Source of the DNA: Mobula hypostoma
Lineage: Eukaryota
Reading direction: 5' to 3'
DNA length: 64,000 nt
Assembly: GCF_963921235.1 (NCBI RefSeq)
Contig: NC_086097.1
Location: forward strand, 130,140,001 to 130,204,000
Part shown: one piece after another, positions 2,218 through 54,394 of the stretch
How the letters are laid out: each line of letters starts with the position of its first letter
Numbering within the stretch: position 1 is the first letter of the stretch
The notes under the pieces: model-generated
Database searches by the model: none
Told to the model about the DNA's origin: nothing
The model's input: the letters and a program-made list of their open reading frames with translations, nothing else
Made by a program: the position numbers and the translations under genes

Positions 2218-5079
2218 GTGTGAATGCCATATGAAACAACAACAACAACAAAATGCAGAGATATACGACTGTGTCAGCTTCCCACCTATGCCACAAAATG
2301 ATTATAAACCCAATCGGGCACAACTAAATTTAAGTTTGAATTGAACACTGAAATGCGTACAAAACAAATTAAACAGGACCCAAGCCAAAAATTTAATTTC
2401 AAAAAAATAATACACTCTTCCTAGTAAGTAATTACTATTATAATCAAGTTGATTGTAAACACGACTTTTCCTATGCAGTTAAAGCTCAAAATACCTTCTA
2501 TGCATTTTATATTATAGCAACACAAGAAAAAAATAACAAGCAAAAATTGAATCAAAGCAAGCAAGATGTACTTGCTAAAGTAAAATGAAGCTAGATCTAT
2601 GACAACCTCCAAATACCATTCCTGTTTCCGTTCCGCATTTGAACTTCAATTAGAGCCACAAATCTTCGCTCCAGTCATCTTAATTTCATGAAGGAGGAAT
2701 GAGACATTTAAAATCTTATAAATGATTTAATGTATTCACACTGGTGGTGAGAGCACGCTGCTGTAGACAAACCGTTACAGCAAACAGCAAAGATTGAGCT
2801 GACGTGAAGATTGCTCTCATTCTTGATAATCAAAAGGAATTATTAAATCCACCAGTGCAAAAACACAAGGCAAAAGCAAAAAGTAATTTCTGTCAAACTA
2901 TACTTTAAATTAGAATTTCTAGTCAGGAATTGGGCAGAAGCTTTTCTTTAAAATTAAGGTATGGAAAGGAAAGTATAGATATAGAATCACCTGAACCTGC
3001 TCTACCACTCAACAAGTACTTGGTTTATCCTGGACCGCGGGTCCACTTGCCCTTCTAATTCTTACTTCCCAAAAATCTCTCCATCTTATTTATATACACA
3101 AACAACTGTGGGGTCAGATTCTGCTCTAATGCCACCTACAAGTTCGCAGATGACACTTATCATGTGAACAAGCCTCCCCTCAATGGTCTGTCTATGCTCC
3201 CTTCCGACCCGGACAAGGAGCCAATACAGTCAAATATCCCTCATACCCCAGTCACTCTCTTTTTTTCCTCCTTCCATCGGGCAGCAGATACAAACGCTTG
3301 AAAACATGCACCAACAGGCTCAAGTTCAGCTTCTATCCCACTGCCAGATTACTGAATGGGCCTCTTGTATGATCAAGGGGACACTTGACTTCACAATTCA
3401 CCTCTTAACTGCCTTGCAGCTTATGTCAGCCTGCGCTGCACTTTCTCTGCAACTGTATCGCTATATTCTGCATTCTGTTATTACTTTCCTCTTGTACTAC
3501 CTTGAAGTACTTATGGGGTGAAGTGATCTTTATACACGGCATGCAACAAAAATGTTCACTGTGCTTTGGTGCATTAATAAACAAATTGATGAATTACCAA
3601 TGGTCTTGCAGCTTTTCTCTAGGTGCTCCAGTTTCTCTCTCCAACATCCCAATGAACACAAGATTCATAGGTTAATTGGTCACTGTAAATTGGGTGGTAG
3701 AATCGAAAATGTGTGAAAATAGTGGGGAGTGGGATTCCTCTGACTGCCACCTAATGGAATAAATGGCCTCTTCTCCGTTGCAAGGGGGAAAAAAGACTTC
3801 TTAGTTTCATTATTTTTCTTACAATCATTATAACAGATGATTAGAACCAACTAGAACTGATTCTGACAAGGCTTCATGGATCTGAAATGTAACACCATTC
3901 TACTCTTGGACCTACTGAGCATTTTCAGCATTTTCTGGTTTTAATTCAGATTCCCAGCAACCACAAGATTTTATTTTGATTCACTAATTGGAACGCGAAC
4001 ATTTTCCACCAAAATAATGGGTGATAAGTACATGATAATTACAGGCTTTCTTTCTCCATGGCTCACCCTTCATCTGACAAATGTCACACTTTGGAAGAGT
4101 AATATTTTACAAGTGTCAATTCAATAGCTGTTAATTAAACGATAATTAAGAGGTAGCCCAGTTCCAACTTTTAACTTTATTTTCTGAAAGGTAACCTGAA
4201 GTAAGAGTATGACTCTCACTTTCTTTGCATTTGATTTGACAACAAGAAGATATGCAACATCTCCCTTCTCATTTGGTTTCACCTATCACCTGCCAGTCCC
4301 TGCCTCACCCCTCTTTTTCATCCCTTTATACTGGTAATCTCCTTTTATAAATTCTCAGTCCAAATACAGGATCTCACCCAGAGACATTGCCTAACACTTT
4401 GTCTCCATAGATCCTGCTCGACCCACTGTTCCTCCAGCATCTGAGGATGCTGACACCATAAGACACAGGAGCAAAATCAGGCCATTCAGCCAATCAAGTC
4501 TGCCCCATTTCAAGTTCAAGTTAGATTTTTGATTGTCATTCAACTATACAGATGTATACAGCTAAATGAAACAGCATTCCTCTGTGCAAAACACAGTACA
4601 AATAGTCACAGTACATTCATGATTTAAGATTGTTTAATGTGATTTCCTATACACAAATGTAAGGAAAACAAAATAATTGTTACTGCAGACGCAATGCAGC
4701 ACAAAATCAGGTTTTGACTACCTGTTGTAGAACCTTCCTGTCCACCACAGTGTGGTTTCCATGCCAAGCAATGATGCAGCTTGTTATGATGCACTCTACT
4801 GTGCATCTGTAGACTAACGCAAGTATGGATGTGCGAAGTCCAGCTCTCTTCAGTCTGCTCAAAAAGTAAAGGAGTTGGGGAGCTTTCTTGATAGTGTAGG
4901 CTGTGTTCTGGGACCATGAGTAAACATATAGTTACCATAGCACACACAGTCACAGAAATAATATTAGCACAGTTCCTCGAATGGCATGCCCTGAAGATTG
5001 ATGGTGAATGGAATGTTGCCCTGGGGCCACATTTCTGCAAGAACAAGTATGGAGCAGTTCCTCATCTTGTGTTGGGCCA

Positions 5080-8000
5080 TCCATAGACAAAGGCAAAATA
5101 GCTTGTCTTGTGCTGGGTCAACAGCTCATCATCATGGCTGACTTGGTATCCCTCTCAACCCTATTCTCCTGCCTTCTCCCTATAACTTTTAACACCCTAA
5201 CTAATTCAGAACCTATCGACCGTCATTTTAAATATACCCAATGACTTGGCTTCCACAGCCATCTGTGGCAATGAATTCCATGGAGTCACCACTCTCTGGC
5301 TAAAACAAAATCCCCATCTCTGTTGTACAGTAACATCATTCTATTGAGAGGTTGTGTCCTCTGTTTCTAGACTTACCCACTGCAGGAAACATTATCTCCA
5401 CATCCCTCTACCCAGGTCATTCAATATTCAGTAGGTTGCAATGAGATCCAACCTCTCCCCAACCTCCTCATTCTTCTAAACTCCAGCAGGTACATGCCTA
5501 GAGCCATCAAAAGCTCCTCATACATTAACCCTTTCATTCCTGGAATCATTCTCATGAACCTTCTATGGACCCTCTCCAACACCAGCACATCTTTTCTTCG
5601 ATAAGGGGCACAAAGCTACTCTCAATACCCCAAGTGTGGTATAACCAATGCCTTATAAAGTCTCAGAACTACACCCTTGCTTTTATATCCTAGTCCTTTC
5701 AAAATGAACGCTAACATTGTATTTTCCTTCCTTACCACTAACAACCTGCAAATTAACCTTTAAGGAATCCTACATGAGGACCCCCAAGTCTCTTTGCATC
5801 TTTGATTTCTGAATTTTTTCCCTGTTTAGAAAATAGCCTTTATTCATTCGACTAAATTGGATGACCATACATTTCCTTACATTATATTCCATCTGCCACT
5901 TCTTTACCTATTGTCCTAATCTGTCTAAGTCCTTCTACGGACTCACTACTTCCTCAACACTACCTGCTACTCCACCCAGCTTTCTATCATCCGCAAACTT
6001 GGACACAAAGCCATCAATTCTGTCATACAAATCAGTGACACAAGCGTGAAAAGAAGCAGCCCCAACACCAACCTCTGTGGAACATTACTAGTCACTGGTA
6101 GCTAACCAGAAAAGGCCCCCTTTATTCCTACTCTTTGCCTCCTGCCAGTCAGCCGATCCTCTATCCCCATGCAAGTATCTTTCCTGCAATACCATGAGGT
6201 CTCATTTTGTTTAGCAGCCCCATATGCAGCACCTTGTCAAAAGCCTTCTAAAAATCCAAGTAAACCACAACCAGTGACTCTCTTTTGTCCGTCCTGCCTG
6301 TTATTTCCTCAAAGAATTCCAACAGATTCGTCAGACAACATTTCTTTTTAAGGAAACTATGCTGTCTTTGGCTGATCGTCATGTGCCTCCAAGTACCCCA
6401 AAACCTCATCCTTCATAATGGGCTTCAAAAATCTTCCGAACGACTGAAGTCAGGCTAACTAATGTGAAATTTCCAGTCTTTTGTCTCATTCTCTTCTTAA
6501 AAATTGGAGTGAGATTTGCAATTTTCCCATCCTCTGGAACCATTCCAGAATTTAGTGATTCTTGACAGATCATTACTAATACCTCCACAATCTCGACAGC
6601 TTCCTCTTCAGAACTCTGGGGTGTCATCCGTCTAGTCCAGGTGACTCACCTATCTTCAGACCTTTCTGCCTTCCAAGCAGCTTCTACTTAGTAATAGCAA
6701 CTACACTCATTTAAGCTCCTGACACACTTGAATTGCTGGCATACTGCTGGTTTCTTCCACAGTGAAGACGGATGCAAAATATTTATTAAGTTAGCCCGCG
6801 ATCTTTGTCCCCCATTGCTACGTCTCTAGATTAATTTTAAAGTGATCTGATATCCACTCTAGCCTTTTGATTTTACTGTTTATATATCAGAAAAACTGTT
6901 CGTATCCTCTTCTCTATTATTGGTTAGCTTATACTCATACTTCATCTTTTCTCACTTAAATGCTTTTTTTCTTTTCCTTCTGTTCATTTTTAAAAGCTTC
7001 CAAATCCTCTAACTTCCCACTAATTTTTGCTATATTATATGCCTTTTCTTTTGCTTTTATACTGTCTTTGACTTCCCTTGTCTGCCACAGTTACCTCATC
7101 CTCCCTTTAGAATACATCTTCCTCGTTGGGATGTACTTATTCTGTTCCTTTGGAACTGCCTCCAGAAACTCTAACCATTGCTGACTGCCGTTATCCCTGA
7201 TTGTGTCCCTTTCCAATCAACTTTGGCCAGCTCCTTTCTCATGCCTCTAACTCTGATATATTCAATTTTAGTTCTCCTTGCAAACTGCAGGATGAATTCG
7301 ATCGTATTTTGATCACTGCCTCCCGAGGGTTCCTCAGCTTAATTGCCCTACTCAAATCAATACCCAATCCAGAATTGCCTTACTCGAAGTGGGTTCAACC
7401 CCAAGCTGCTCTAAAAAGCTATTTTACAATTTGAAATACAGGCATTTTACAAATTCCATCTCTTGGGAACCAGCACCAACATGTTTTTCCCAGTCTACCT
7501 GCATACTGAAATCCCCCTTGACTCTTGTAATATCACCCTTTTTACATGTCTTTTATCTCCCATCTCCCACTGTAATTTATACTCCACATCCTGGCTACTG
7601 TTTGGAGGCCTGTCTGGATCTTTTTCTTTAATTTTAGAGATATGGTGCAGAAAAGGCCCTTATGGCCCAAATTGCCGCACCAGCCAGCAACCCACCTACT
7701 TAACCCAAACTAAACACAGGACAATTTACTTTGACCATTTAACCTACAAACTGGTACATCTTCAGAATGAACCTACTAACTGGTACATCTTCAGAATGTA
7801 GGACAAAACTGGAGCACCTGGGGGAAACCCACACGTTCACGGGGAGTAACATATTATCTACAGTCTCTTACAGACGGGATCCAACCTCCAACAAGCTATA
7901 ATAGTGTCACACTATTTCTTGATTCTACTCACAAGGACTCTACACCTTTTGATGCCATATTACCTCTTTTGAAGGATTTGATTTCATTTTTTACCAACAG

Positions 8001-10758: not shown

Positions 10759-12131
10759 AGTTTTAAGGGGAGAAGAGAGAAATGAGAAACAAGCTTTTGA
10801 ACACATAAGGTAATGCACATGGAATAAGCAGCCAGAAGAAGTGATTGAGGTAAGCACTGTACATTCACAACACTTAATAGGCACTCGGACTGGAACATGG
10901 ATGGGACTATTTTACAGGGATATGGGCCAAACATTTGACAATGAGACTAGCTGTGAGAGATCCTGGTCAGCATGGACAAGTTGGGCTGAAGGGCTAGTTT
11001 CCATGCTGTATGATTGTATTTAAGATGAAAACAAAGATAACACTACAGCCAGCAGATGATTAATTGTCAACAAGCTAGGTTGTCACCCATTGCAAGTGGC
11101 CAAGGTTTATTTAATGCACATGACTTATATGTGGCTGCACACTACTCATTGAACTTTTCCTAGAGAAATAAATCATAGTTATTGAGAGAGGTTGCTGCAG
11201 TTTCCATTTCCTGCACTATTTGAATTGACTCTGTTTTCTAAACAAATTTACTACACGGACAGATCTTCTTCTACCCCAAGTTTGCAAGTCTCCACATGCT
11301 GGACCATACTGTTTCTCCCAAAATGTAGTCTTCCACTGATAAACTAGCTCCTGGCAGATCAGAGAAGTACAAAACCTCTCCCAAAGCAAGAAACCGGATG
11401 CAGTGACAAGATCGCCGAGAATAACCAGTCTCTGACCCCAACTCACCAGCTTCATACCTGCTATTTAAATTGGATGTTCAACTGCTCCACCACTCATTAC
11501 AGTCATGGCTAATCTTTTACTTCCACAGTGCTCAACATCTGGCCAGTGGGGTAGTTCCATCCAGCCCAGCTGTGGGAGTTACTCTGTATCTATACTCGTA
11601 AGTCCTTCACTGCATTTGCCCCAGTTGACAACTCTGTCCCTGAAGATGTTTCCTGAAGTGAGATCTTACTTAGAAAAAAAAACACCACCTCAGACTTCCT
11701 GGCTATCGGAACCATTACAGCACTGAATATGTCTGTGAACCTCTTATGCATTCTCTAATGGTTCAGACACACTTCCGGTAAGATGGCAGCATAGTCTGAC
11801 ACAGCAGCTTCTACAGGGTCAACTGAAGGTGTTATTGTCTCTTTTAAACATTTTTTTACAATCGCAAGACCCTGCTAAACATTAAAGTACTGCAGATCTA
11901 CTCCATCGAGTTGCTCGTTGCCGGAGAAACTGAGGGAGTTGGTATGGACTGTGACAGAGGGGCTTCAGTACGCAATGGAGGTATGCAGTCTACCAGCGAT
12001 TGATCATCTTAGTTGCTTTTCTTGTGATTGCAAAACTCTGTCCTTTACTGGTTTTTCACCTGGAACATACTAGCCTTCTCCTTCCCACCCTCCCCCCACC
12101 TTCTTTATAGGGCTTCTGCCCCTTCCCTCTA

Positions 12132-12169
12132 CAGTCCTGACGAAGGGTTCTGGTCCGAAGCGTCGACTG
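12132..12169 (+). ncRNA. Hammerhead motif, degenerate (GAAA>GAAG), in a Penelope 3'-end fragment (about 12080-12260)
   Basis: cagtc-CTGACGA-agggttctggtcc-GAAG-c-GTC-gactg; perfect 5-bp stem I cagtc/gactg. Confidence 0.6.
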
Positions 12170-15100
12170 ATCTTTTCCACGGATGCTGCCCGACCTGCTG
12201 AGTTCCTCCAGTGTGTTGTGAGTGTTGCTTTGACCCCAGCATCTGCAGATTATTTTGTGTTCTGTTGGATACTGGTGGTATGGAATGCTTCAAGTCCAAC
12301 TGATTAGCTAGTTGATGAATGACAGGGGAGCGGCATGACCTCATGACCCAGGACTGGGTCTCAAGCCATGGTGGCACCTGTGGCCAGTTGCACAGGGACA
12401 GGGGTTGGAGTTGGGCACTCCACTGGAGTGCCAGAGGTGGTGTGGCACAGAATAGGGATGTTGCTGCCCTAGTGTTCCCTTGGCAGAAGACAAGCAGAAT
12501 TGTGATTAACTACAGACTGCTGCAACATTCATGGACTAAGGAACTTGGATATATTTTTGTGTGACTGTATTTTACTTCCATCTTATACTGCATGTGCTTG
12601 CTGTCTCATATGTGCTGTGTGCGCCTGGTGCTGTGTATGACTGTTGGTGCTGTGTTTTGCATCTTGGCCCTGGAGTAACACTGTTTCATTTTGCTGTATT
12701 CATGGGTATTCATGTATGGTTGAATGACAATTACACTTAAACATACGTACACAAAAAGAAGTTGGGGGGGGGAGAAAAAAAAATCGATCCTCAGAAGTGA
12801 TTTGGATCGCCAATCCACCTCCCCCACAACAACTATTCACTTCAAGTCTTTTACCCTCCTAATTCCCTAAACCCTCAATAATTTACTCAATGTTGTAAAT
12901 CTCTACCAAAACAAGACATGAATTTCAAAGATTTATAACCACAAGTAAAAAAAAAAGCCTCTGTCCCTGTCCTAAATCACTGGCCCTACAATTAAGTTCT
13001 TATTTCCTGGCTTTAGCTTGAAGAAATAACCTCCTAGTTTTCATCTGTGCAGAATCTTACTGAACTAATGAATCACCTATTTCCAAACATCAGTAAGTGT
13101 TGATATATCCAATTTAATCACTCCTTAAGACTTAAATCATCTTAAGTCTGCTCCTCCATATGGTATAACTGAACGGCACTGTGGTCAGGCCAAGTTTGTT
13201 TTTCAACATACACCCAGGATGAAAAAGAGTCGATGGTCCATCTGGTTCATGCTGCTGCTTATGGTCCACCCCAACTCCAATCATTCCTCAGCATTTAACT
13301 CGATCTAGTGCCACCTCACCTACACCTTGTATTCTCTGAGCCATTAACTTCCCCTGCTTAGGTAGTCCATTGCGACTGAGAATGATTGGCTTCAATTCAG
13401 GCTTGTGAATTCTGAGGTGATCATTGAGGCTAACGTGGAAGGGCAGACCTTCCACAGATGAGCAGGAGATGCCTGATAGGATAGATGGACAGATACATCT
13501 GCAGATGTCTGTCGACTCCAGCCTCCCTTCCCCTCCCCTCCCATACCTTATGATAACCTGCCTGTTACTTTCAGTCCAGCAATCATCTCAGACTCCTGTG
13601 TCAGCACTCCCCATCTCCTCTCTTCATACCAGCCATTTCCTCACTCTCAGTCCTGATGCTGAGTTTCCACCCAAAACATCGACAATTCCTCTCCTACAAA
13701 TGCTGCTTAACCCACTGAGGTTCATCCAACAGACTGTTTATTAGCAAATTTATTATGAAACCCTTTTTACTTCTTGGTTTGTTATCAGACGACAGGTTAC
13801 AACATCCATTTTGAGTCATAGGAGTAACTGAGGGTGCCCACCAAGCGAGTCCCATGTCTTGCATTTGACCTGTATCCCCTCCTATTCATGCATTCATCCA
13901 AATCATACATAAACCTTGTCAGGTAGGGACAGACTTCCTTCACTGAAGGATGAAGATTAGATGGGATTCTGCCACTTCACCTCCACATTACAGATCCCCA
14001 AGTTTACTTAGCAACCTGAATTTAAATTCTCCAGCTTTCCTGCTGAGATCTTAACTCTGCATTAACACCACAAAGCTCCAAATACTGTCCAGCAGCTCTA
14101 CCATGTGATAATACATGTGCCTTTCAATAGGTAGAATCAGCCAACACTGCCCATGTTACATACCCAATGCCATTGAGTATGGACCTGTTTTCTCCAAGTA
14201 TTGCTGTAGTCTAACTTACCTATTTTTAGATAATGAAGCATCAATGTACAATCAGTCCACTATTTTGAGGCATGTTATAAAGATTAACAATGTATCTAAA
14301 TATTGACCCTTCCTCTCCTTTTAAAAGCACACAATTTTTCTCTTTACAATTCAAAATTCTCAGCAGGACCCACTACCCTAGTGGGAGGATAAAGGAGTGA
14401 TGCCAGGACATGGCAAGAGGGAGGGGAGGCAGGTGAGAAAGACCCCCTGTCAGTTCTCTGTTCTTACCTCCACTCACTCTGCACGTTCCTGGAGACATTT
14501 TGGAACTGCAGCATTCTCAGGAGACTTGCCAACAATGGAGACCCAGAAGGCGATATCGAGACCTGGTGGCACTGTAATTTCAAATAGGAATGTCCAGTGG
14601 GCCATCAGGTCTGTTTGCACATGGAGCATCTCAAAAGATATTTTAGAAATAAATCATTTACAAAAATAACGCATCTCCAGTCAAAGGTGGGGGATCTACT
14701 TTTACACACAGCCTCAAATGAACTGCATGAAAAACTTCATGAAATGTCCCAAGTATTGACACTGTTTTCATCAACTTTCCACTATCCAAAGTTCAACCGT
14801 CTCCCTAAGTTAAAGTACACCCAGCTTCATCTTGCATTTCTGTTTCTTGGTCTGGCTCCTAAACCTCTCTTACATAAACTCTCCCATGGTTCCTCCTCAC
14901 CTGCTATCTCCTGAAGTGTCTCTGCTCCCACTCTTTCAAACACTGACACAGGCATCTCGGTTTCCCTACTTGTATTTCTCATATTGCACTTCCCCCTTTC
15001 CATGTCTTCTTCTCACTCGTTCCCACACAAAGAAAACACACACACACCTCTCAAACTTTTCAAACCTTTAAACTGTTCGCTCAGCTAATCTACTGTTCTT

Positions 15101-15918
15101 AAAGAGATGGTGGCCATAGAAGGTGTGTATTTGGGTGTTGCTGTAAAAGAAAGCCACTCACGCACACAATAATATTATCTTTTCCCATGTTGATAGTATG
15201 CCAATCTCTAGCATCCGTGACCTTGAGCTCTTTCAAAACTCTCTCCAACCTTCTTCCAAGCATGCACATTGGATCATCCAACCCAACGCTCCCTGACCTA
15301 GACTGTCCACAAAAAACTGGCACCCAGAACTACAATCCTCCAATCACTCCATGCTCCTCCAATCCTTGCCTCTTATACACTCTCTCCATTGACCTCAATT
15401 CCTGGCTAGGTCTAGAGATCTGGAATTCCTTCCTTTCCTTCAAGATCACCCTTTAAGAAACTGACTTAGTGACCAAGGTGTTAGCCAGTCTTCCAAATAT
15501 CCTTCTCTTTGGTTTGGCTTCAACCTCTCTCTCACTGCTCTCCTGTGAAGTGCTTTGGATGGTTTCCTCTTGCTAAAGGCATTACAGACAACACCTTTTT
15601 TTGCTAGTTTGCAAACATTAACCAGTGAAATAAGTGATGGGAACAGATGGCACATCTTTAGACACACAAACCCATGGTAAAAATCTAAAGCATTAGGATA
15701 GGAATGAAATTAATTCCCAGAGCTTGCAGCCTACACAAATGTGGAGCCACTTCACATAACAAGGTGCAGTACTGAGCCAAAACAGCAAGCAGTCCATTAC
15801 CTAACACTATTAAATATGAGAAGAGAGAGGCCCACCCCAACACAGTGTTTAAAAAAACCAATCCTCATTCCTCCTCAATAAACATGAAGCTCAACAAGGC
15901 AGACGACAGTGCACTTAC

Positions 15919-17037
15919 CAGGACGAGCAGCAACTAAGTGAGTTGTCCTGTTGGGGTCTTTGGGATTCAAAGATAAGGTTTTGCTAACCTTGGCTCCAAG
16001 GGCTGTGGCATGATACCACTCTCTTGTCTTTTCCATGGGGTAGTTTGTTGGGTAGAGTCCACTGAATATTATCCTTGTGCCTTCAAGTGTCTTGCTCTTC
16101 AGTTCTGGAACAATCTTCCTCAGATCAGGCACTTGCTTCTCCTTTTTGAGGTACTTCTCATACTGGGCATAATACTCTGTGTGGACATGGACCAGGATCG
16201 TTTCCAAGTGAATCAAATGGTCATCGTCATCTTGGTCCTCCTCCTCCTCTTCCACGTCCATGCTTTGATCCAGGGACTCACCCATCGTTACACCCGATTG
16301 TTCACTGTTCTGAGACTCCGTCTCAGCCTCTTTCTTTTCAGTGCACCCGTTCCCCACGTCGCCAAGCAAGTCCTGGTCAGCATCTGTCTCGGGCTCCAAG
16401 TCGGCTCTCTTATCCTGCAAATCTGACTCTAATAAATCAAGTACCTTCTCCTTCTCTGAGTGGTTAAATTTTGTCTCTGTGCTCCCCTTTCGCTGCTTCC
16501 TTGTCTTCTTTTTTGCTGTGCCCTTCTCACTGTCTAGGCTCAGGGTGGGCGAGGGCGAAGTGGAGCCTTGTTTTCCTTCCTCCAGTTCACTGTCGCTGTC
16601 ACTCGACAGGTCAAAATCGAGCTCACTGCTAGCTGCCTTTAAGTGGCTTTCACCTTCCTTGGCAGACTGCCCCGAGCTACTCTCTGCCAGCGTAACTGCA
16701 CACTCTGACAATTGTTCAGACTCTTTTGCTTTACCAGAAATAACAGTACTAGCAGTTTTTGTGTGGGAAAGACTGGTGTCACATAAAGATATCCTTTCAT
16801 GTTCTTTGTCATGTAAAGCATTTGCAGCAGGACCACATTTTAAAGATTCACTACATTTTAAGGATTCATCCTTTAGGATACTATTGCTACCATTTTGTTT
16901 CTTGGAACACTCCCCAAGGCCATTACTTTCTTCTTTTCTTTCTGTTCCTTCACTACACCTGTTGCTTGTACTGACAGCTTCTGTTGAAATGGGCACGGTC
17001 TGCTCCAGTCCTTCTGTGGGCTTTGAAGAATGATTTA
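15919..17037 (-). CDS. CTDP1: CTDP1 exon 8 (acidic/Ser-rich linker, DDDDHLIHLE, start of BRCT domain)
   Basis: 1119 nt, phase 1-1; acceptor ...ttccacag, donor GTAAG; ORF 15875..17140 contains DDDDHLIHLETIL...PDLRKIVPELKSKTL...IIFSGLYPTN...THLVAA. Confidence 0.96.
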
Positions 17038-18688
17038 CTGTGGAACATAGCAAGAAAAAAAACATCAAGATTAGAAACAATAATAAAATTAACAAAATCA
17101 TTGCATACAGCAAAACTAAAAACACACTTTCAATCATCAATCCTTTCTAATGAGGAGATAAGACTGCAGATGCTGAAATCTGGAGCAAAAGACAAACTGC
17201 AGGAGGAACTCAGTGGTCAAGCAGCATCCCTGTAGCCAGATAGATGGTCTACCTTTTTGGGTCAAGATCCTGTTTATCCTGATAAAGGATCTCGGTCCGA
17301 AACATCAACTGTTTACTCTTTTCCAGGACTGCTGAGTTCCTCCAGCATTTTGTGCGTGTTACTATCCTATTTGTTCTACTAGGTCCTAAATATAGAATGC
17401 AGCCATAACGTGCACAAAAGTAGTTCTGTTGCCTTTATGTAATGTGTAACAGTAACACCTAGTTAGCAATTTCATCCACATCTCAAAGTCCCATTTTACA
17501 ACTGGCTTCTGTCATATTCTGAACATTAATTTCGTGCTCATTCTCCAGGAACTTCCAACCTTGGACTCATGATAGTGATAGGGGCCTGTTTCTAGGCCTT
17601 TGGTCCACGCCAACCAAAATTCCCATGTAAGCTCGTCCTATTTGCCTGCGCTTGGCCTACATCTTCCTAAACCTTAGACACAAGCACCGCAGATGCTAGA
17701 AATCTACAGCAATACACACAATGTGCTGGAGGAGCTCAGCAGGTCCGTTCTGATGAAGGGTCTTGGCTCAAACCATCAACTGTTTATTCCCATCCATACA
17801 TATTGCACCTGGCCTGCTGAGCTCCTCCAGTACATTGGGTGTATTGCTCCTTCAAAACCTTTTCTATCTATGTACCTCAGTCAAGTACCTTTCAAATGTT
17901 GTTAATGTACTGGTCTCAAAAATTTACATTGGCAGTTCATTCCACACACTGACCACCATCTAATATCAAAACTCTGCTGCTCTGGATCCTATTAAATTTC
18001 CCTCCACTCACCTTAAATCCAAGTAGGTAATTTGGTTTATTACTGTCATATGTACTGAGGTACAGTGGAAAAACTTTGTATTGCATGCCAACCAAACTGA
18101 TCCTTTCATCACATCAGTGCATAACCCATGCCCTCAAATCCTTGATTCCCAAAAAGGACATCCACCCCATCTATGTTCTTCATGATTTATTCACCTCTAT
18201 AAGAGATCATCCTTATTTTCTGATGCTTCATTGAATAATGTCCCAACCTTCTCAAGCTCTTTTCACCAGTAAATAGTAAAGCTCAGAGCAAAAGATGGAT
18301 GCAGAGACTGATTTTGATTCATTCTCAGAGTATGGGCCTTGAAAAGCAAGGCCATCATTTACTACCTATTCCCAAAGTTCTCCTGGACCCAGTGGCTTTC
18401 TATGATCATTCTAAAGGGCTGACAATATTCAAACAATTGCTGAGGGTTTCATGTCACACACAGTCATGCAAATATTTTGGATTTCATAATGCACATTGAA
18501 GAGGATTTTTTTTAAATGACAACCCAGATTGGACAAGGGCTTTTAAGTTCTAAAATTAATTAACAGATTTTAAAGTCCATATTGAAATTTAAACTCCAGT
18601 AACTTAAATATAACGTGGCTGTACCCAAGAAAGCCGTTTAAAAAATTGCAAAATCCTACAGCTGCCACACGCACTTATTAAGACTCAC

Positions 18689-18855
18689 CCCTCTTCTTCA
18701 CTGGCACATCTTTAGATCCTGGTGGAGCATTGATATCACCAGTTCCTTGAAAATAGGTGTATTTTTTAACTAATATTAAGTTTGGTGCAAATTTCCAGAC
18801 GTCTTCCCGATCATCAATGATGCAAACCATCGAGTCACCACAAGGAAAAAGATTC
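18689..18855 (-). CDS. CTDP1: CTDP1 exon 7 (NLFPCGDSMVCIIDDREDVWKFAPNLILVKKYTYFQGTGDINAPPGSKDVPVKKR)
   Basis: 167 nt; acceptor ...tttag, donor GTGAG; IIDD HAD motif IV. Confidence 0.97.
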
Positions 18856-36777: not shown

Positions 36778-36906
36778 CTTGTTGGACATTTTCTGGCACA
36801 GCTGCTCTGTTGTATGGATTAAGGTCTGATCCAGATCCACCATCAACACTAGCTTCCGGTTCTTATGTAGCCACTGCTGATCCTCTCGACCCAATTGCTC
36901 AGCTTG
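36778..36906 (-). CDS. CTDP1: CTDP1 exon 4, catalytic DxDxT motif (QAEQLGREDQQWLHKNRKLVLMVDLDQTLIHTTEQLCQKMSNK)
   Basis: 129 nt; acceptor ...ctcacag, donor GTGAG; DLDQT is the FCP1 active-site signature. Confidence 0.97.
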
Positions 36907-37206
36907 CTGTGAGGTAGAGGTGATAAGGCGGGGCAGGGGGTGGTGGGGGTGTAAAACAAAGATCTTTTTAAAAATCTATACCCATGTTAATGTAACATGT
37001 ACAGAGAAACAACTTTGCAGCACAATAAAACGCCTTTCAATCTCCATATCTATGACTGACTTTGCTCTCTATATAAGCCTCCTCCAATTCTAACATCGGA
37101 ATATTTTTCTATTCTTTTCTCTCTCTGTTAAAAGTCCCTGGTAAATGCCTCAACTAAATGACACCCATATTCTCACTATTTTCTGGGCAAAGAACTTCCC
37201 TTAGAG

Positions 37207-37286
37207 CAGAGGTTCCCAACCTGGGGTCCATGCACCCCTTGCTTAACAGTATTGGCCCATGACATAAAATAGTTGGGGAACCCCTG
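37207..37286. mobile_element. 80-bp hAT MITE
   Basis: TIRs cagaggttcccaac / gttggggaacccctg; degenerate 8-bp flanks CCTTAGAG/CTCTAGGG. Confidence 0.7.
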
Positions 37287-39104
37287 CTCTAGGGTTTTTG
37301 ACTTAACAGCAATTGTCTTAAACTTACGCCCACATGTTTTGGACACCCTATAACTGGACATATTTTCTCTGGTTTGTCCAATTCAATACATAACGGGCAC
37401 ACCTCTCCTCACATTAGCAATATCTACAGGAGGTACTGCATCAAGGTGGGAACAGCTATCAAAGATCCCCACCATCTTCTTGCAGGTACCATTGGATGTT
37501 GGACAGAAGCCTGAAGTCCCACACTACCATGTTCAAGAACAGCTACTTCCCTTCAACTATTCAGTTCTTCAACCAACTAGCACAACCCTAATCACTACAA
37601 CACTATGACCACTTTGATTACTTGGAACTACAATGGATTTTTTTTTGCTCTAATTGTGTTCTTGTAAAAATGGGTTAATTTTGTTTAATTTATGTTTTTC
37701 TTGTGAATGCTGATTATATGATGCTATGCACCCGTGATGCTGCTGCAAGTAAGATTTTCATCGCATCTGTGCATACATGCATTTATGCATACGACAATAA
37801 ATTCAACTATTAAACTCAACTATTGACTATTCAATCTCTTTATACATTTAACAGGCATTTCCTGAGAAATGAGGAGATTCAGTGTTCCAAGAGAGTTTTG
37901 CCATCAGTCTTCCACATCAACCTTTTTCTGCTCTTTGAATTACAGAAAAAAGGCACTGTGCAGAATGAGGCCATTCGATACACTAGTCTGAGACAGACCC
38001 ATACTTCCTCCTTCGAGCAGGAGTGTGGCATTGTGTAATCCATAAACACTCCAGTGATTGCCGAGCACTTGAGAATGTCAGAAGGAGCAGTAATGTGTAG
38101 CACAACTATCCTGTCCAACTCCCTTCACCATATATATCAACGTGGTACATTGTGAAGTAGTACACAGATCACTGCAACAATGGAATGGCTTAAAACAGAT
38201 CAACTCTAACCGAACAGGAATATATTTCATGGCTGGTATGAAATATGGAAGACCTTAAGGGCAAAATAAGCCAAGTGCTGTTGGAAAAAGAATCAGGATA
38301 GGTTACTCAATGATTTCAATCCATCCTACAGTTTAATCTTTATCTTGACATCAATTGATATCCACAACCATGCAAGTCTAACGGTTTCAAAATTCCTATT
38401 AAATCCGGCATATCAAATAGCTGGTTGTTGTCTTCTACTCTCACCTCTGGGGGAATCAAAGTGCTTTCTGATTCACTCTAAACGGCACATCTTTCATTTT
38501 AAGGTGGTGAGTTCTTACGCTTTATTTCACACTACTGCGGCATAATCAATAGGAACACAACATTTGTTTTACAGCCTAGCTTCATAACATAACCTGTTAA
38601 GCACCAGGCATTGTTTCCAACAAATCTGTCTGTGGAAGGATGCAAAAGAGAAAGGAGCAGAAATGAAAACACTGCCAGAAACTCTGCAGCAGTGAATACA
38701 AAAATTGAGCAAGACTCTCAAAAGGATTGAAGGAAATACAGCAAGGAATAAATTACGCTGGGAACGATGCAGGGAAGATATTTTTATTTGCAAATTACTT
38801 GGATAAATAAACATGCCAATTATTGCAATCTCAAACGTCAACTGGAACAGAGAGCCTCAATGCTGTGCAATTACCAAGCGACAGCACCACCTACTGATAA
38901 TAGGTCAGGTACTCATGACAGTGCCACCTACTGGAGTAGGGAACAGAAACAAGAAATTCATAGAAAGGAGATTAATTTGAAGACTGTTCTAAAAAGACAC
39001 CAGCAAGAGCGACGGCAGTAGGAGATAAACTAAAAAGAGAGATCAAGAAAGGCAAGACAGTGATATAGAACAGAAACACTGTACTTTAATTCCACTGGAC
39101 TCAC

Positions 39105-39198
39105 CTCAGAGCTCACCATCAATTCTGGAACACTGTGAACCATGGAAACTGTTGCTGTGGCTACTGGTGCTGTTTGCTTCCCATTCTTCTTCTGTAAT
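39105..39198 (-). CDS. CTDP1: CTDP1 exon 3 (LQKKNGKQTAPVATATVSMVHSVPELMVSSE)
   Basis: 94 nt; acceptor ...cttcag, donor GTGAG; phase joins exon 2 (CA+A = Gln). Confidence 0.95.
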
Positions 39199-39859
39199 CT
39201 GAAGACAAGAATGCAAAATGAAGGACGAATTGCCATCCAAGCATCCGAGGAGGAAGCTGCTGTCTGCCACAATATTCTCAGACCTCCTTAACAATGCTTC
39301 CACTAATGAATTCAGTAACCATTTTATTGGATACATCCAGAGAGAAAGAGGAAAGTGGCATTAAAGCAGATATTATTGCCATCTTAAAATGGTGTATCTG
39401 CTCTACAGCTTCCCCTCCTATCTTTCTTCATCTCATTGCATCATAAACTCTTACTTTCCCTCCCTCAAGTGCTTTTACTGCTTCAGTTAAGTGCATCTCC
39501 ATTACTTGCCTCACTCATTCCTGATAACCAGTTCCACATTCTAGTCATGCTTTGGGCAAAGAAATTTCTTCCAAATGCTTCATTAGCGAGTACAGTTAAT
39601 GTGCACAGTTCTGGCCTCCTTATTGTACCAGCAAAAGATAGTAGTCTAAGGGAGGTCCATTAGGCTAATTCCTCAGACAAAAGCTTCCCTCCCACAAGCA
39701 AGTGAAGTTACATCTACAATACATTTTTTGAAGTCTGAAGGGTGATCTTTTTGAAATAATACAAAGATTCTAAAGGGGCCATGACAGTAGATGTTGAGAT
39801 ATTTCCACTAGTGGGAGAATTTCAAGATTGGGAGATGAGTAGTAGTTATAGAGAACCAC

Positions 39860-41660
39860 GTACAATGTGCCGGAGGAGTTCAGCAGATCAGGCAGCTTTT
39901 ATGGATGAGAATAAACAGACGATGTTTCGGGCCGAGACCCTTCATCAAGACTGGAAAAGGAGAGGGAAGAAGACAGAATAAGAAGGTGAAGGAGGGGACG
40001 AAGTAGTACAAGGTTGCAGGTGATAGGTGGAACCAGTAGGGGAGGAGGGGGTGAAGTAAAGGGCTGGGAAGTTGATTGGTGAAGAGATAAAGGGCTGGAG
40101 AAGGAGGAATCTAATAGCAGAGGACAGGACACCATAGAAGAAAGGGAAGAAGGGAGTAGCACAAGAGGGAGGTGAAGGGCAGGTAAGAAGTTGTGACAGG
40201 GAAACAAGAATAGGGAACGGTGAAGGGGGAAAGGGGGCAATAACAAGTAGTTTAAGAAATCAATGTTCATGCCATCAGGTTGGAAGCTACCCAGGTGTTG
40301 CTCCTCCAGCTGGAGTGTGGCTTCATTGTGGCAGTAGAGGAGGCCATGAACTGGAATGTCAGAATGGGAATGGGAAGTGGAATTAAAATTGGTAGCCACC
40401 AGGAAATCACACTTTTTGTGGGGAGTAGAGTGAAGGTGCTCGACGAAGCAGTCTCCTAATCTACGCCGTATCTCACTGATATACAGAAAGCCACACCGTG
40501 AGCACCGGATACAGTAGATTATCCCAACAGACTCACGGTGAAGTGTCACCTCACCTGGAAGGACTGTTAGGGGCCCTGAATGGTACTGAGGGAGGTGATA
40601 TAGGGACAGGTGTGGCACTTGCTCCACTTGCAATGACAAGTACTAGGAGGAAGATCAGTGGGGAGGGACATGTCGACAAGGGAGTTGCGTAGGGAGCCAT
40701 CCCTACTTCGTGGTGGGATCCCGATGGAGATGGCGGAAGTTAGGATAATTATGTGCTAGATGCGGAGGCCTGTGGGGTGGTAGGTGAGGGGAGAGGAACC
40801 TTACCCCTGATGTGGCAGCAGGAGGATGGGGTGAGGGCACAGAAGAGTGCAAAATGGAAGAGATGTGGGTGAGGGCAGTGCTGATGGTGAGGAAGGGAAG
40901 CCTCTTTCCTCGAAGGTGGAGGACATCTCAGTTGTTCTGGAATGAAAGTCTCATTCTGAGAATAGATGCGGCAGAGACAGAGGAACTGAGAAAAGGGAAT
41001 GGCATTTTTGCGAGTGACAGGGTGGAACAGGTATAGTCAAGATGGCTGTGGGAGTCAGTGGGTTCATAAAAGATACCAGGAGATAGACCGTCTCCAGAGA
41101 TGGAGACAGACAGATCAAGAAAGGAGAGAGTGGTGTCAAAAATGGACCAAGTAAATTTGAGAGCAGGATGGAAGTTAGAGGCAAAGTTGGTAAAATTGAC
41201 AAGCTCAGCATGGATGCAGGAAGCAGCACCAATGTACTCACCAATGTAGCATACGATTTGGGGAGCAATGTCAGTGTGGTCTTGGAACATAGACTGTTCC
41301 AGGTAATCAATGAAAAGGCAGGCATAGCTGGGACCCACACGAGTGCCCGTGGCTACACCCTGGGTTTGAAGGAAGTGGGAGGAGCCGAAGGAGAAAATAT
41401 TGAGGATGAGGACCAGTTCCGATAGATGGAGGAGAGTGATGGTGGAGGGGAACCGGTTGGGTCTGCTGTCCAGGAAGAAGCAGAGAGCTTCCCCTGATAG
41501 GGGATAGTGGTGTATAGAGACTGCACATCCATAGCGAAAACAATCCAATCAGGGCCAGAGAACTTAAAGTCATTGAAGAGATCAAGAGTGCGTGAAGTGT
41601 CATAGATATAGGCAGGATGGGACTGAACCAAGGGGGATAAAATAGAGTCAAGGTGTATAG
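39860..41660 (-). mobile_element. Penelope-like retroelement, 5'-truncated and frameshifted (RT + GIY-YIG endonuclease + 3' repeat with hammerhead)
   Basis: Minus-strand ORF pieces MDVQSLYT, QTQGVATGTRVGPSYACLF and LSFLDLSV (Penelope RT), and GIIYCIRCSRCGFLYISE...RRLGDCFVEH (GIY-YIG), followed by a hammerhead-like motif at 39916-39953. Confidence 0.88.
39916..39953 (-). ncRNA. Hammerhead motif, degenerate (CUGAUGA>UUGAUGA), at the 3' end of the Penelope element
   Basis: Minus strand cagtc-TTGATGA-agggtctcggccc-GAAA-c-ATC-gtctg. Confidence 0.6.
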
Positions 41661-42414
41661 GAATTTATTTTTATAGAGCATGGTTAATCTCTGCAATTTT
41701 CTACTCCAGAATGGTTGTGGAGGCTCTGTTGACCTCTCTGGGTGTATTTAAGACAGCAAATATATACTGTTTTGAAATATTGAGGAATTGGCAAAGGAAA
41801 GATGATGTCGAGAGGATATCAGCCACGATCATACTAATGATAGGCCAGGTTTAAGGAACCATTTGGCCTACTCCTGCTTCTCTTTCCTTGTGTTCTTAAC
41901 CTCATACACAGGTGATCTCCAATACTGGCCTCTGAACAGAAACGTCATAACCACACCCTTGTTATCAACCCCTTCCATTATCAGAAATGCCTCTCAGCTT
42001 CCCCCTTTCTAAAGAATATAGCTCCATCCTTTGTCTCTCCTGACAGTGTGAACCTCCTTTAAAGTCATTTCTGCACTCCCTACTGTTCCAATGTCCTTTC
42101 TGTAAATGGGAGACAGATTCAGCACAACTGAAACTACAGAAAAAGCTCAATGATCTGGACCTAAAGCTATAGGAACTCAACAGGTCTGGCAGCAATCTAC
42201 TGTGAGAAATAGACGTCAACATTTTAGTGCGCATTCAGCTTGTACCATTCATTTCAAGCCAAGGGACATCATAAGGACAATGAGACAGGCTAAAACAAAG
42301 ACGGAATTAATTAGGATTTGGGACTGTTGACCTCTCTGGGGTGGGGAGAGTGAAGGATAAGAAAGCAAAGTGAAGAACCATGGAACAACTGTTTACCCAA
42401 TTTACCCAAGAAAA

Positions 42415-44117
42415 CGCTGGATGAACTGAATCAATATTTTGGACCAGCCATCACTGTGGAAGACACTAGCAGTATGCCGGAAGTTCGAGTGTCAGGGGGC
42501 AAAAGTAAGTGAAGTTGCCATTACTAGGGAGAAGCTACTTGGGAAACTGAAAGGTCTGAAAATAGATAAGTCACCTGGAGCTGAAGGTGTACAACCCAGG
42601 GTTCTGAAGGAGAAGGAGGCTGAAGAAATTGTGGAGGCATTAGTAATGATCATTCAAGAATCAATAAAGTCTGGCATGGTTTTGGAGGACTTGAAAATTG
42701 CAAATGTCACTCCACTCTTCAAGAAGGAAGACAAGCAGGAAAAAAAAATTATAGGCCAGTTAGTCTGACCTCAGTGGTTGGGAAGAAGTTGGAGACAATT
42801 GCTAAGAGTATGGTTTCGAGGTATTTGGATTCACGTGACAAAATAGGCCACAGTCAGTATGGTTTCCTTAACGGAAAAATTTGCCTTACAAATATCTTGG
42901 AATTCTTTGAACAAGCAGGATAGACAAAGGAGAATCAATGGATGTTGTATACTTTGATTTTCAGAAGGCCTTTAACAAGGTGCCATGCATGAGGCTGCTT
43001 AACAAGTTAAGAGCTCATGGCTCTTAACTTGACAAGAAAGATACTAGCATGGATAGAGCATTGGCTGATCGGCAGGAGGCAAAAAGTGGGAACAAAGGAA
43101 GCCTTCTGGTTGGCTGCCGGTTACAAGAGGAGTTCCGCAGGGTTCGGTGTTGGAACTGTTTCCATTTAAGTCATAGGTCAATGATTTGGATGACGGAATT
43201 GATGGCTTTGTGGCTAAGTCTGCAGATGATACGAAAATAGGTAGAAGCACAGGTACTTTTGAGTAAGCGGAGGGGCTACAGAAGGACTTAGACAGATTAG
43301 GTGAATGGGCAAAGGAGAAAGGTCAAGAAATGGCAGATGGAATGCAGTGTCGAGAAGTGTATGGTCATGCATTTTGGTAGAAGAAATGAAAGTGTATATT
43401 ATTTTCCAAATGGAGAGAAAATTCAAAAATCAGAGGTGCAAAAGGACTTGGGGGTCTTAATGCAGGATTCCCTAAAGGTTAATTTGCAGGTTGAGTCAAT
43501 GGTGAGGAAGGCAAATGCAATGTTCGCATTCATTTCAACTGGAGTAAAATATACAAGCAAGGATGTAACGTTGAGGCTTTATAAGACACGGGTGAGTGCT
43601 CACCTGGAATACTGTGAGCAGTTTTGGGCCCCTCATCTGAGAAAGGATGTGCTGACACTGGAGGGGGTTCAAAGGAGGTTCAGGAAATGATTGAAAGACT
43701 TATCATATGAAGAGCGTTTGATGGCTCTGGCCCTGTACTCACTGGAATGCAGAAGAATGAGGGGGGAATCTCATTGAAACTTACTGAATGTTGAAAGGCC
43801 TCAACAGAGTGGATGGTAGGGAAGTCAAGACCAGAGGACACAGCCTCAGAATAGAGGGATAGCCATTTAGAACAGAGATGAGGAGGAAATTCTTCAGCCA
43901 GAGTGGTTAATCTGTGGAACTCATTACCACAGGCAGCTGTGGAGGCCAAGTTATTTGGTATACCCGAGGCAGAGATTGATAGACTCTTGATTAGTCAGGA
44001 CACAAAGCAATACGGGGATTGGGGCCGAGAGTGAAATGCTTCAGCCATGATGAAATGGCGGAACAGACTCAATGGGCTAGATGGCCTAATTCTGCTCCTA
44101 TATCATACGGTCTTATG
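42415..44117 (+). mobile_element. Decayed CR1 LINE RT region
   Basis: KSPGAEGVQPRVLKE...KIANVTPLFKK; WQMECSVEKCMVMHFG...HLEYCEQFWAP; 3' tail ggcctaattctgctcctat. Confidence 0.88.
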
Positions 44118-44369
44118 TTCAACCTCGTCGATCATGGACATGTGGCTCTCCTTACCTATGCTGCAGATTCCTTATCTGCCAAGGAATTCATTACTCAAGA
44201 GCAAGTGAAGCCTCCAACTGAAGAGAAACAATTACATTTTGGTGAAGCATTCATTAGGTTGAGGCAATTCCACACCACCAGCTTATTCTACAAACACTCT
44301 GCTTCAGATCTCACTGCAGGATGCATTTTATAACAAAGATTGGTGGAGGCAAGGATGGAAAGAACTTAC

Positions 44370-44453
44370 TGCGTCAAGTCTTGGCCACACGCTGCACAGA
44401 GACCTTTCATAATGACTGGATGATTGCATCCTTCTAGTCGCAGTAGTACAGCT
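44370..44453 (-). CDS. CTDP1: CTDP1 exon 2 (AVLLRLEGCNHPVIMKGLCAACGQDLTQ)
   Basis: 84 nt; acceptor ...tttgcag, donor GTAAG; contains the conserved C-x-H...GLC-x-x-CG motif. Not in the ORF track, read by hand. Confidence 0.95.
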
Positions 44454-49730: not shown

Positions 49731-49892
49731 CAGATAAGGGCAAGTTCCTTCATTCAATCTTTGCGATTCCCTACCCCAATTGGGCTGTGTAGGCTTAGTC
49801 AATGAGCCTTTAAAAATCAAGATTGATTAAGTTACACACATAAAAGACGCTGGCGAACGCAGCAGGCCAGGCGGCATCTCTAGGAAGAGGTA

Positions 49893-49930
49893 CAGTCGAC
49901 GTTTCGTGCCGAGACCCTTCGTCAGGACTA
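49893..49930 (-). ncRNA. Minimal type I hammerhead ribozyme motif (one stem II mismatch)
   Basis: Minus strand tagtc-CTGACGA-agggtctcggcac-GAAA-c-GTC-gactg, within a Penelope-end fragment at about 49830-49950. Confidence 0.68.
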
Positions 49931-50149
49931 ACTGAAAGAAGAGCTGTCTTTTTTCTCCCCCCAAGAAAAGGGCATCAGTGAATATGAAGAGCACAGGAAA
50001 AACGGTAAAGATACAAGATCATTCTGAAAAATGATCTGAAAAGCCCAACTCCTGCTCCTAATTTTAGTGTTCTTAAGGATTTTTTTTCTAAGAAGGATCC
50101 TTTACACAAAATTACAAGAGACAGGATTCAAACCTAGATCTGCAGCATT

Positions 50150-52000: not shown

Positions 52001-52109
52001 AACTGGCCTCACAATCCACCTTCAGACCTTTCACTTTATCATTTACCTACACTGCTCTTTACACTTCATTTTGCATTGTTCTACCTCATTCTAGCTCAAT
52101 GTACTGAGT

Positions 52110-52357
52110 CAAACATGAGAAATTCTACAGATGCTGGAAATTCATGCAACACACATCAAAGTTGCTGGTGAATGCAGCAGGCCAGGCAGCATCTCTAGGA
52201 GGAGCTACAGTCGACGTTTCGGGCCGAGACCCTTCATCAGGACATTTTTCAACGTTTTGGGCCGAGACCCTTCGTCAGGACTGGCCCGAAACGTCGACTG
52301 CACCTCTTCCTAGAGATGCTGCCTGGCCTGCTGCATTCACCAGCAACTTTGATCAAG
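52110..52357. mobile_element. Short foldback Penelope-derived insertion with tandem hammerheads
   Basis: About 71-bp inverted arms 52155-52225 and 52283-52353; 9-bp TSD GTACTGAGT at 52101-52109 and 52358-52366. Confidence 0.85.
52208..52243 (-). ncRNA. Minimal type I hammerhead ribozyme motif, core intact
   Basis: Minus strand reads gtc-CTGATGA-a-gggt(ctcg)gccc-GAAA-c-GTC-gac: catalytic core, stem II, palindromic ACGT in place of stem III, GUC cleavage triplet and stem I gtc/gac. Confidence 0.75.
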
Positions 52358-52559: not shown

Positions 52560-53250
52560 TGGTAAGTGGAAAAGACAAAAGAAGGAGGAATCTGATAGAA
52601 GAGAGTGGATCAAGGGATAAAGGGAAGGAGGAGTGGTATTAAGCAGGTGAGGAGAAGAGGTAAGAGGCAAGAGGAGGGCAGGGGAAACATTACCAGAATT
52701 TGGAGAAATCAATGTTCATGCCATCAGGTTGGTGGCTACCAAGATGGAATATGAGGGGTTGCTCCCAAATCCAAGAGTGACCACACTGTGGCAGAAGAGG
52801 AGGCCATGGACCCACATGTCAGAATGGGAATGGGGATAGCTGCTGGGAAATTCCACTTTTTGCAGATGGAGTGGAGGTGCTCGGCAAAGCAGTCCCCCAA
52901 TCTATATTGGATCTCACCAATGTTCAGGAGGCTGCCTTGGGAGCACCGGACACAAACAACCCCAGCAGATTCACAAGTGAAGTGCTGCCTCACCTGGAAA
53001 GACTATATGAGGCCCTGAATGGAGGTGAGGGAGGAGGCAAATGGACAGGGTGTAGCACATCTGCCATTGGCAGGGATAAGTGCCTGGAGGGGGAGTAGTG
53101 GGGAGGGATGAATGGACAACAGAAACACAGAGGGAGTAATCCCAGGAGAAAGTGGAGAGTGGGTGGAGGTAAAGATGTGTTTGGCAGTAGGGTCTCATTG
53201 AAGATGGCAGAAGTTGCTGAGAGAAATGTGTTGGATGCGGAAAGTCATTA
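52560..53250 (-). mobile_element. Penelope-like GIY-YIG 3' fragment
   Basis: ORF 52736..52993 FTCESAGVVCVRCSQGSLLNIGEIQYRLGDCFAEHL; nucleotide similarity to 40070-40780. Confidence 0.8.
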
Positions 53251-54100: not shown

Positions 54101-54240
54101 AAAACGCAAACACGAGCAATTCTGCAGATGCTGGAAATTCAAGCAACACACATCAAAGTTGCTGGTGAACGCAGCAGGCCAGGCAGCATCTCTAGGATGC
54201 TGCCTGGCCTGCTGCGTTCACCAGCAACTTTGATGTGTGT
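54101..54240. mobile_element. Short foldback Penelope-derived insertion with perfect 46-bp hairpin
   Basis: Arms 54145-54190 and 54196-54241 are exact reverse complements with a TCTAG loop; 15-bp TSD TCCTACTTC(C/T)ATTTA at 54086-54100 and 54241-54255. Confidence 0.88.
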
Positions 54241-54394
54241 TCCTACTTCTATTTAGACCTTATATTAGGTAGGCCTCAATTTTTGGCTCTGCATCAGGTA
54301 TCCTCTTAAAACTTGTTACAATTATGCAACTAAATGTACTAGCCAACAAAAATTCTTCTATTCTCCTTCCTCCCAGCACTTTTTTGCTCTAAAC

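Follow-up and report, generated by a model that had tools for sequence, protein, structure and literature searches.

Relics of a probable Neptune-type Penelope-like retrotransposon with minimal hammerhead motifs in CTDP1 of the ray Mobula hypostoma

The CTDP1 locus and the census of repeat copies

We analysed a 64,000-nucleotide stretch of the genome of the ray Mobula hypostoma (NCBI RefSeq assembly GCF_963921235.1, contig NC_086097.1, positions 130,140,001 to 130,204,000), called the window below, which carries a family of short repeats related to the ends of Penelope-like retrotransposons, many of them with a minimal hammerhead ribozyme motif. The large exon at 15917-17038 matches CTDP1 of M. 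hypostoma (P0023) with 100% identity, and tblastn-type mapping located seven coding exons of this gene; the remaining exons, the first and the last included, were looked for within the 64-kb window and not found. The whole window thus appears to lie inside CTDP1 of a mobulid ray, with every repeat copy intronic.

15917..44452, minus strand: CTDP1 coding exons, residues 108-719 (44452-44369, 39197-39105, 36906-36778, 35341 to about 35195, 21494-21399, 18857-18690 and 17038-15917)

The copies were counted with two profiles. The first, seeded with five window copies and cut off at E≤1, gave 27 matches in the window and none on the reversed window. The second, longer profile, seeded with nine window copies, tail included, and cut off at E≤0.05, gave 27 arms (13 on the plus and 14 on the minus strand), which we grouped into 20 loci covering 2,224 bp or 3.5% of the window; the same profile gave one match over ten shuffles and none on the reversed window. 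Because profile seeds match by construction, we also built an independent covariance model from 14 metagenome motifs only, with no ray sequence, and applied it to 63,701 of the window's 64,000 bases. The eight top-ranking matches (E 7.5e-9 to 0.023), headed by 52207-52246 with 40.1 bits, all fall on positions named in the original prediction, which had been made from the letters of the window alone; the motifs at 22165 and 13648 ranked 12th and 23rd, both with weak scores, and the one at 34408 was missed by this model. All eleven positions listed in that prediction are family members; the start that it gave the family, at 3860, was recovered by neither profile and shows a weak alignment only (37 of 51 bases). 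The pairs of copies facing each other in inverted orientation were confirmed. As to the proposed age series, arm-to-arm identity runs through 98, 94, 88, 83, 78 and 71% over six pairs and the CpG sites kept fall from 4/4 to 0/4, a range of ages that is relative only and carries no dates.

about 3858-3960, plus strand: marginal old arm
4355..4442, plus strand: arm of great age, preceded by some 95 bp of 3' untranslated region (UTR)
12040..12263, plus strand: tailed arm that includes some 95 bp of 3' UTR; its hammerhead carries A15.1>G
13647..13735, plus strand: old arm in which the core has A9>C and stem I is short
17158..17363, both strands: old head-to-head pair, tailed arm on the minus and hammerhead arm (G8>A, G16.2>A) on the plus strand, arms 71% alike
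17679..17849, both strands: head-to-head pair, tailed arm on the minus and decayed hammerhead arm on the plus strand
22161..22223, plus strand: old arm with A9>C and downstream letters in common with 13647
24122..24248, no single strand: tailed arm whose start lies 8 nt ahead of the cut site, plus an inverted stub of 24 nt
34313..34501, no single strand: old head-to-head pair, hammerhead heavily decayed
36573..36726, no single strand: inverted stub, decayed hammerhead (36598-36641), then a coding-region fragment
49827..49931, minus strand: single arm of young age with an undamaged core and a short 3' end; stem I has 5 bp and stem II one mismatch (C11.2>A)
52110..52352, minus strand: young compound insertion made of an inverted arm (52282-52352), a partial tandem motif (52249-52283, G12>A), an intact motif with C3 at 52240, body and tail
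52207..52246, minus strand: best minimal type I hammerhead, with an undamaged core, A9.1 bulged out, a stem II of 4 bp and a stem I of 3 bp
54101..54240, no single strand: young head-to-head insertion, two arms without hammerhead, one tailed and one not
18907-18984 (minus), 30071-30141 (plus), 32224-32254 (minus), 34883-34975 (minus), 42134-42227 (minus), 44665-44749 (minus), 45576-45674 (plus): further old single arms

Three of these loci have peculiarities of their own. The two arms at 17158-17363 look like different subfamilies and possibly stem from two events, one copy lying inside an older one. At 36573-36726, about 50 bp from a CTDP1 exon, the decayed hammerhead is joined directly to an internal coding piece, by a template jump or a deletion. 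The copies at 13647-13735 and 22161-22223 have in common, besides A9>C, the same altered letters just past the cut site, which leave a 3-bp stem I, and are possibly members of a subfamily that was amplified with a degenerate hammerhead.

The hammerhead motif and its relatives in metagenomes

In the best copy, at 52207-52246, the first strand of stem I is followed by CUGAUGA, a bulged A, a 4-bp stem II closed by the G10.1-C11.1 pair, GAAA, CGUC and the second strand of stem I; an ACGU palindrome replaces helix III, and the cut is predicted after the C at 52213. This is the sole match to our structural descriptor in the window, and it has the features of the minimal hammerhead, i.e. a CUGANGA and GAAA core with a UH cut triplet, stems I and II, the bulge after A9 and G10.1-C11.1. 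Because there is no helix III, the motif needs a partner to cut. Minimal hammerheads of this kind were described by Cervera and de la Peña in 2014 (PMC4209133) in the pseudo-long terminal repeats (pseudo-LTRs) of Xena, Poseidon and Neptune elements; most lie scattered singly and some form pairs on opposite strands, and there are about 4,000 of them in coelacanth and 9,000 in Xenopus; according to that report the monomer is inactive and dimers are weak cutters. The ray motif agrees with the published one in the missing helix III, the bulge after position 9, the G10.1-C11.1 pair, the palindromic 15.2-16.2 and the pseudo-LTR site, and the ray copies, like those reported there (Neptune included), are single, dispersed, derived from truncated elements and accompanied by opposite-strand pairs nearby; the ray differs as a host, and its stem II has 4 bp. 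Together with the 40.1-bit match to a model free of ray sequence, this anatomy supports the Penelope origin and the minimal hammerhead identity that had been predicted. Novelty is confined to the host and the family, since the kind has been in print since 2014. Sharks, Callorhinchus and skate are not mentioned in the searchable part of the supplement of PMC4209133.

With Rfam, no hammerhead reached the gathering score in the window, and none came up at E≤10 near 52240; four weak matches to microRNA models reflect hairpin shape only. Moreover, the monomer motif folds no better than its shuffles (z -0.13). These are the results that one would expect if the likeness to a hammerhead were a chance product of a palindrome-rich repeat end, a reading to which we give hardly any credence and which is, judged by sequence comparison, largely refuted: the Rfam models matched none of this helix III-less form, the model of 14 non-ray motifs gives 40 bits, and both the letters and the place of the motif are conserved in relatives.

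These relatives came from a protein-guided metagenome scan, in which 293 stretches were confirmed; our results rest on the best 80 loci, 43 of which reach the endonuclease end and 34 of which have at least 300 nt past it. In 12 of these 34 loci a descriptor-passing minimal hammerhead lies 96-149 nt downstream of the endonuclease on the sense strand, while the opposite strand downstream carried none among the 34 loci and 20 shuffle rounds also gave none. Sixteen aligned motifs have 16 invariant columns, which are the catalytic core, the bulged A, the closing bases of stem II and the letters of the palindrome, and the stem letters differ between families. As to covariation of the stems between families, 39 cells were altered on both sides against 14.9 in shuffles, a partly circular figure. 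The true structure is 84% paired and slid structures 21-42%, which is again partly circular because the descriptor demands pairing; the constancy of position and strand is free of this circularity. One locus, L012, has a motif identical in every letter to the Acropora digitifera Neptune motif given in the supplement of PMC4209133. Position, strand and invariant core in the metagenome loci therefore point to a fold under selection in the source elements of this clade. We also observed a classic inverted upstream pseudo-LTR with its own opposite-strand hammerhead in two loci (L002:1087 and 3582, L012:2289 and 4460). Exact-motif scans gave no match in viral contigs or metagenome contigs, and a protein-guided viral scan gave no relative.

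The coding partner and the structure of the insertions

Four coding remnants of a Penelope-like element, with reverse transcriptase (RT) and GIY-YIG endonuclease homology, lie in the window beside the 20 short-copy loci.

39854..41670, minus strand: 5'-truncated, frameshifted Penelope-like element with RT remnant, CxxxxCxxC linker and GIY-YIG remnant
24822..26583, plus strand: second coding fragment (24822-25432 and 26299-26583) with Neptune-type linker
52665..53245, minus strand: third coding fragment, comprising the linker and a remnant of the endonuclease; it predates the adjoining young insertion and is distinct from it
36631-36726: fourth coding remnant, found by tblastn

The coding homology of the first element runs from mid-RT to the endonuclease end (41664-40247), with a decayed RT catalytic motif, and is followed by about 290 bp of 3' UTR, the hammerhead, whose C3 at 39950 lies 297 nt past the coding end at 40247, and a 3' end of the short class described below. 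Its own hammerhead is broken by two lesions (C3>U and G16.2>A), and the 8-bp direct repeat at its flanks (39846-39853 and 41671-41678) is borderline, its score being reached by 8 of 150 random pairs. The end of the element matches the youngest copy at 73 of 99 bases (74%), homologous but not identical; the element is therefore related to the young copies but older, and did not give rise to them, so that the predicted link between the short copies and an RT/GIY-YIG element holds as homology and not as the same sequence. Near this element, in the interval 39000-42000, the GC skew shifts near 40 kb from mostly negative to mostly positive with the direction of the host gene unchanged, a shift accounted for only in part by the pyrimidine-rich element.

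The order RT followed by a C-terminal GIY-YIG rests on colinear tblastn matches, the window fragments being frameshifted, and the CxxxxCxxC linker is found in two of them (about 40625-40600 and the frame 26206-26592). With 40931-41548 as query we obtained eight proteins, seven from Mobula or Hypanus and one unnamed cluster; the latter contains a 928-residue full-length relative (P0014), for which no solved structure related by sequence was found. The ray relatives match RVT_1 and GIY-YIG below the curated cut-offs, Pfam gave no match on the window's own retroelement fragments, and the ray proteins are about 40% identical to L012. Two database proteins named as isoforms of chitinase domain-containing protein 1 and divergent protein kinase domain 1C (P0001, P0002) consist almost wholly of Penelope RT or RT-endonuclease, and their names are likely annotation artefacts. 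Neptune-like elements are defined by a CX2-5CxxC linker (PMC8557442, PMC3846280), and the ray element resembles this clade, as described there, in its RT, linker, C-terminal GIY-YIG with zinc-finger cysteines and hammerhead pseudo-LTR, as well as in the 5' truncation, inverted arms, one-sided tail and target duplications of its insertions. It differs in that many ray insertions are pseudo-LTR ends alone, unlike the Neptune examples of these two sources, in a 3' UTR of about 300 nt before the hammerhead against 96-149 nt in the metagenome relatives, and in the length of the target duplications, which is 14-15 bp here and 8-10 bp in the rotifer examples of PMC3846280.

Most insertions are only 50-250 bp long, and many are head-to-head with their 3' ends outward. 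The young insertion at 52110-52352 is flanked by a 14-bp target duplication (52096-52109 and 52353-52366) and that at 54101-54240 by one of 15 bp (54086-54100 and 54241-54255), each with one mismatch; their scores of 11 and 12 compare with a maximum of 8 over 150 random pairs, and no targeting of microsatellites was seen at these two sites. Their inverted arms are nearly perfect (67 of 71 and 46 of 47 bases), and for the insertion at 52110-52352 folding gives a hairpin with about 70 bp (z -18.9), the inverted arm covering the cut site. Such arms would make long double-stranded hairpins in the CTDP1 pre-mRNA, possible substrates for editing or small RNAs.

The 3' ends of the arms are bimodal with respect to the cut site, 12 lying at +56 to +74, 12 at +86 to +109 and three elsewhere, although the ends of old copies are imprecise. 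The two groups are the short and the tailed class, and the tail, of 30-45 nt, is present on one arm only, as is known for Penelope-like insertions (30-40 bp): five of the six profile-detected head-to-head pairs combine a short and a tailed arm, the sixth runs into a coding fragment, the 24-nt stub at 24122 makes a seventh pair of the short-plus-tailed kind, and no pair has two tails. Two ends of this sort are known from PAc, a Poseidon element of the green anole (Frangieh et al. 2024, PMC11167929), which is reported to have two internal RT start sites, the stretch between them being the tail, both target strands cut and extended, and a hammerhead with stems I and II only. PAc belongs to a different clade from the ray element and initiates in an AC-rich stem-loop; for the equivalent ray region, 3' of the cut site, the consensus fold of ten arms was empty, with a 7-9 bp stem in three of the ten single folds, and we therefore claim no conserved fold there. 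The PAc reading frame begins inside the hammerhead, and in the metagenome loci L025 and L028 the frame match begins 460-710 nt past the upstream motif.

The 5' ends lie anywhere between +65 and points more than 90 nt upstream, in sequence that resembles UTR, and young copies extend at most about 18 nt upstream of the core. The cut site is spanned by 19 of the 27 arms and none begins within 5 nt of it, so that 5' ends defined by cleavage are rejected for the window (0/27 arms) and the template RNA was either uncut at this site or re-ligated. These ends bear on a reading in which the short copies would form a non-autonomous family in their own right, SINE-like or retrozyme-like, with its own transcription, cutting by dimeric hammerheads, copying by a Penelope RT and perhaps RNA circles. 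The excess of short copies over coding fragments (20 loci against 4), the short upstream reach of the young copies and the one locus with two motifs 38 nt apart all speak for it, as does the report of non-LTR retrozymes, with a proposed pseudo-LTR origin, in one chondrichthyan (Li, Clavereau and Pollet, 2026 preprint, 10.64898/2026.07.22.740005), which share with the ray copies a type I hammerhead, the Penelope pseudo-LTR origin and dispersed monomers. However, retrozymes are defined there as tandem units, each with a complete hammerhead, and self-comparison of the window gave no tandem array of full units but one 38-nt partial tandem with a broken core, in which the upstream motif carries G12>A; the scattered 5' ends avoid the cut site, and tails and inverted arms are standard products of truncated insertion. 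We regard this reading as unlikely, though the least improbable of the three rivals. The pair 52249-52283 and 52207-52246 was also considered as a functional dimer and rejected on three counts: G12>A upstream, a stem I of 2 bp at a GUU site, and the long hairpin.

Origin of the relics and what they may be used for

It is very probable, in our judgement, that the repeats are fossils of the 3' pseudo-LTR, left in a mobulid ray by one subfamily after another of a Neptune-type Penelope-like retrotransposon. The hammerhead probably acts only in the source RNA. The element would be transcribed as a multimeric precursor RNA, and the fold would be kept by selection in the source elements and would probably cut only as a dimer or with protein help in that precursor. 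The hammerhead of PAc is reported to cut only with protein, to be dispensable for insertion in vitro and to leave no RNA-seq ends at the cut site. As in other Penelope elements, the GIY-YIG domain would cut the target, reverse transcription would begin past the hammerhead, at either of two internal sites, producing short and tailed ends, and cDNA synthesis would usually stop early, within 50-250 nt, leaving the relics. Penelope-like elements are general in vertebrates (PMC6155905, PMC4350176).

Several points weigh against this account. The probable Neptune-type assignment is based on the linker motif and on the identity of about 40% between ray proteins and L012, and Nematis elements are reported to have a linker zinc finger as well. 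The link of the young copies to an autonomous partner is inferred, because the window holds no intact source of the youngest subfamily. Among 19 loci searched for target duplications two were clear, the coding element was borderline and 16 were at or below background, and the pairing figures from the metagenomes are partly circular. Finally, in 13 copies the core positions match better (112/130) than other non-CpG positions (144/191, p=0.023), at odds with neutral decay, and both copies with an intact core (52240 and 49925) lie in the sense strand of CTDP1.

These last two observations would also fit a reading in which some of the intact dispersed copies would be active as ribozymes, cutting host pre-mRNA as trans-dimers or with protein help and so affecting host genes. 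Subfamily differences and ascertainment predict the core excess too, and in other respects the copies look like neutral relics whose decay is mostly CpG loss: 20 of 56 CpG sites remain, and 28 of the 36 changed ones read TG or CA. The core, the palindrome and the closing pair are kept together in 2 of 14 aligned motif copies, at 52240 and 49925, and the other 12 are damaged in the core, the ACGU palindrome or the G10.1-C11.1 pair, those at 12134 and 52278 by a single lesion each; the palindrome itself is present in young copies and in 15 of 16 aligned motifs. The intact copies are simply the youngest, with 4/4 CpG sites kept; the one at 52240 is paired off in the long hairpin and the one at 49925 misfolds at minimum energy. 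A strand bias against the host gene is rejected (13 against 14 arms), published monomers are inactive (PMC4209133), and eight of nine Xenopus dimers assayed in the preprint of Li and colleagues were left uncut. We therefore hold such host-directed cutting to be very improbable; most likely, the dispersed single copies in CTDP1 pre-mRNA do not cut.

The very large ribozyme repertoire that had been proposed for the genome is accordingly overstated, with two of 14 cores intact and one descriptor pass, which sits in the hairpin of about 70 bp. By arithmetic, one passing motif per 64 kb would extrapolate to about 16,000 per gigabase, and a count of one allows anything from about 400 to 90,000. With one descriptor-passing motif and some 20 relic loci in 64 kb, the repeats may be locally denser than in coelacanth or Xenopus, a comparison that concerns one window only.

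How the inverted pairs arose bears on the retrotransposition mechanism. Self-priming was proposed in 2013 (PMC3846280). The outward 3' ends and the short-plus-tailed rule, drawn from few pairs, appear to fit priming from both cut strands, and we tentatively suggest, as a possibility that we rate below even chances, that the pairs record double-ended priming, in which one endonuclease-RT dimer would make a staggered cut and both 3' ends would prime on pseudo-LTR RNA. With a stagger of 14-15 nt, one end would prime at the proximal and the other at the distal internal start site, and both cDNAs would stop after 50-150 nt and then be joined, which would explain the combination of a short with a tailed arm in five of six profile pairs and in the 24122 stub.

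The window also contains decayed fragments of another LINE-like repeat (5130-7610, 23570-26370, 42420-44110 and 60990-62270), which splits the second coding fragment at 25433-26298 and which, from its sequence style, we take to be CR1-like as a candidate label.

As a ribozyme discovery the finding carries little weight, since the motif, its site and its abundance in vertebrates have already been described. In the literature on sharks and rays we found no description of this family, and the supplementary retrozyme tables of the preprint may already list its sequence. Its value lies in the material: some 20 relic loci per 64 kb, in several age layers, give statistical power for questions such as the in vivo role of the Penelope hammerhead and the origin of inverted, one-tailed insertions. 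Repeats of this family, making up a few per cent of an intronic window and forming long hairpins in a housekeeping pre-mRNA, matter for repeat masking in rays, and also for gene prediction, because several annotated ray proteins are pieces of the element. Given relics of this density, ray genomes would offer a large natural data set for choosing between double-ended priming and self-priming. Moreover, they could serve to test template cleavage, or the loss of the hammerhead in a subfamily that was still amplifying, such as that of the A9>C copies at 13647 and 22161.

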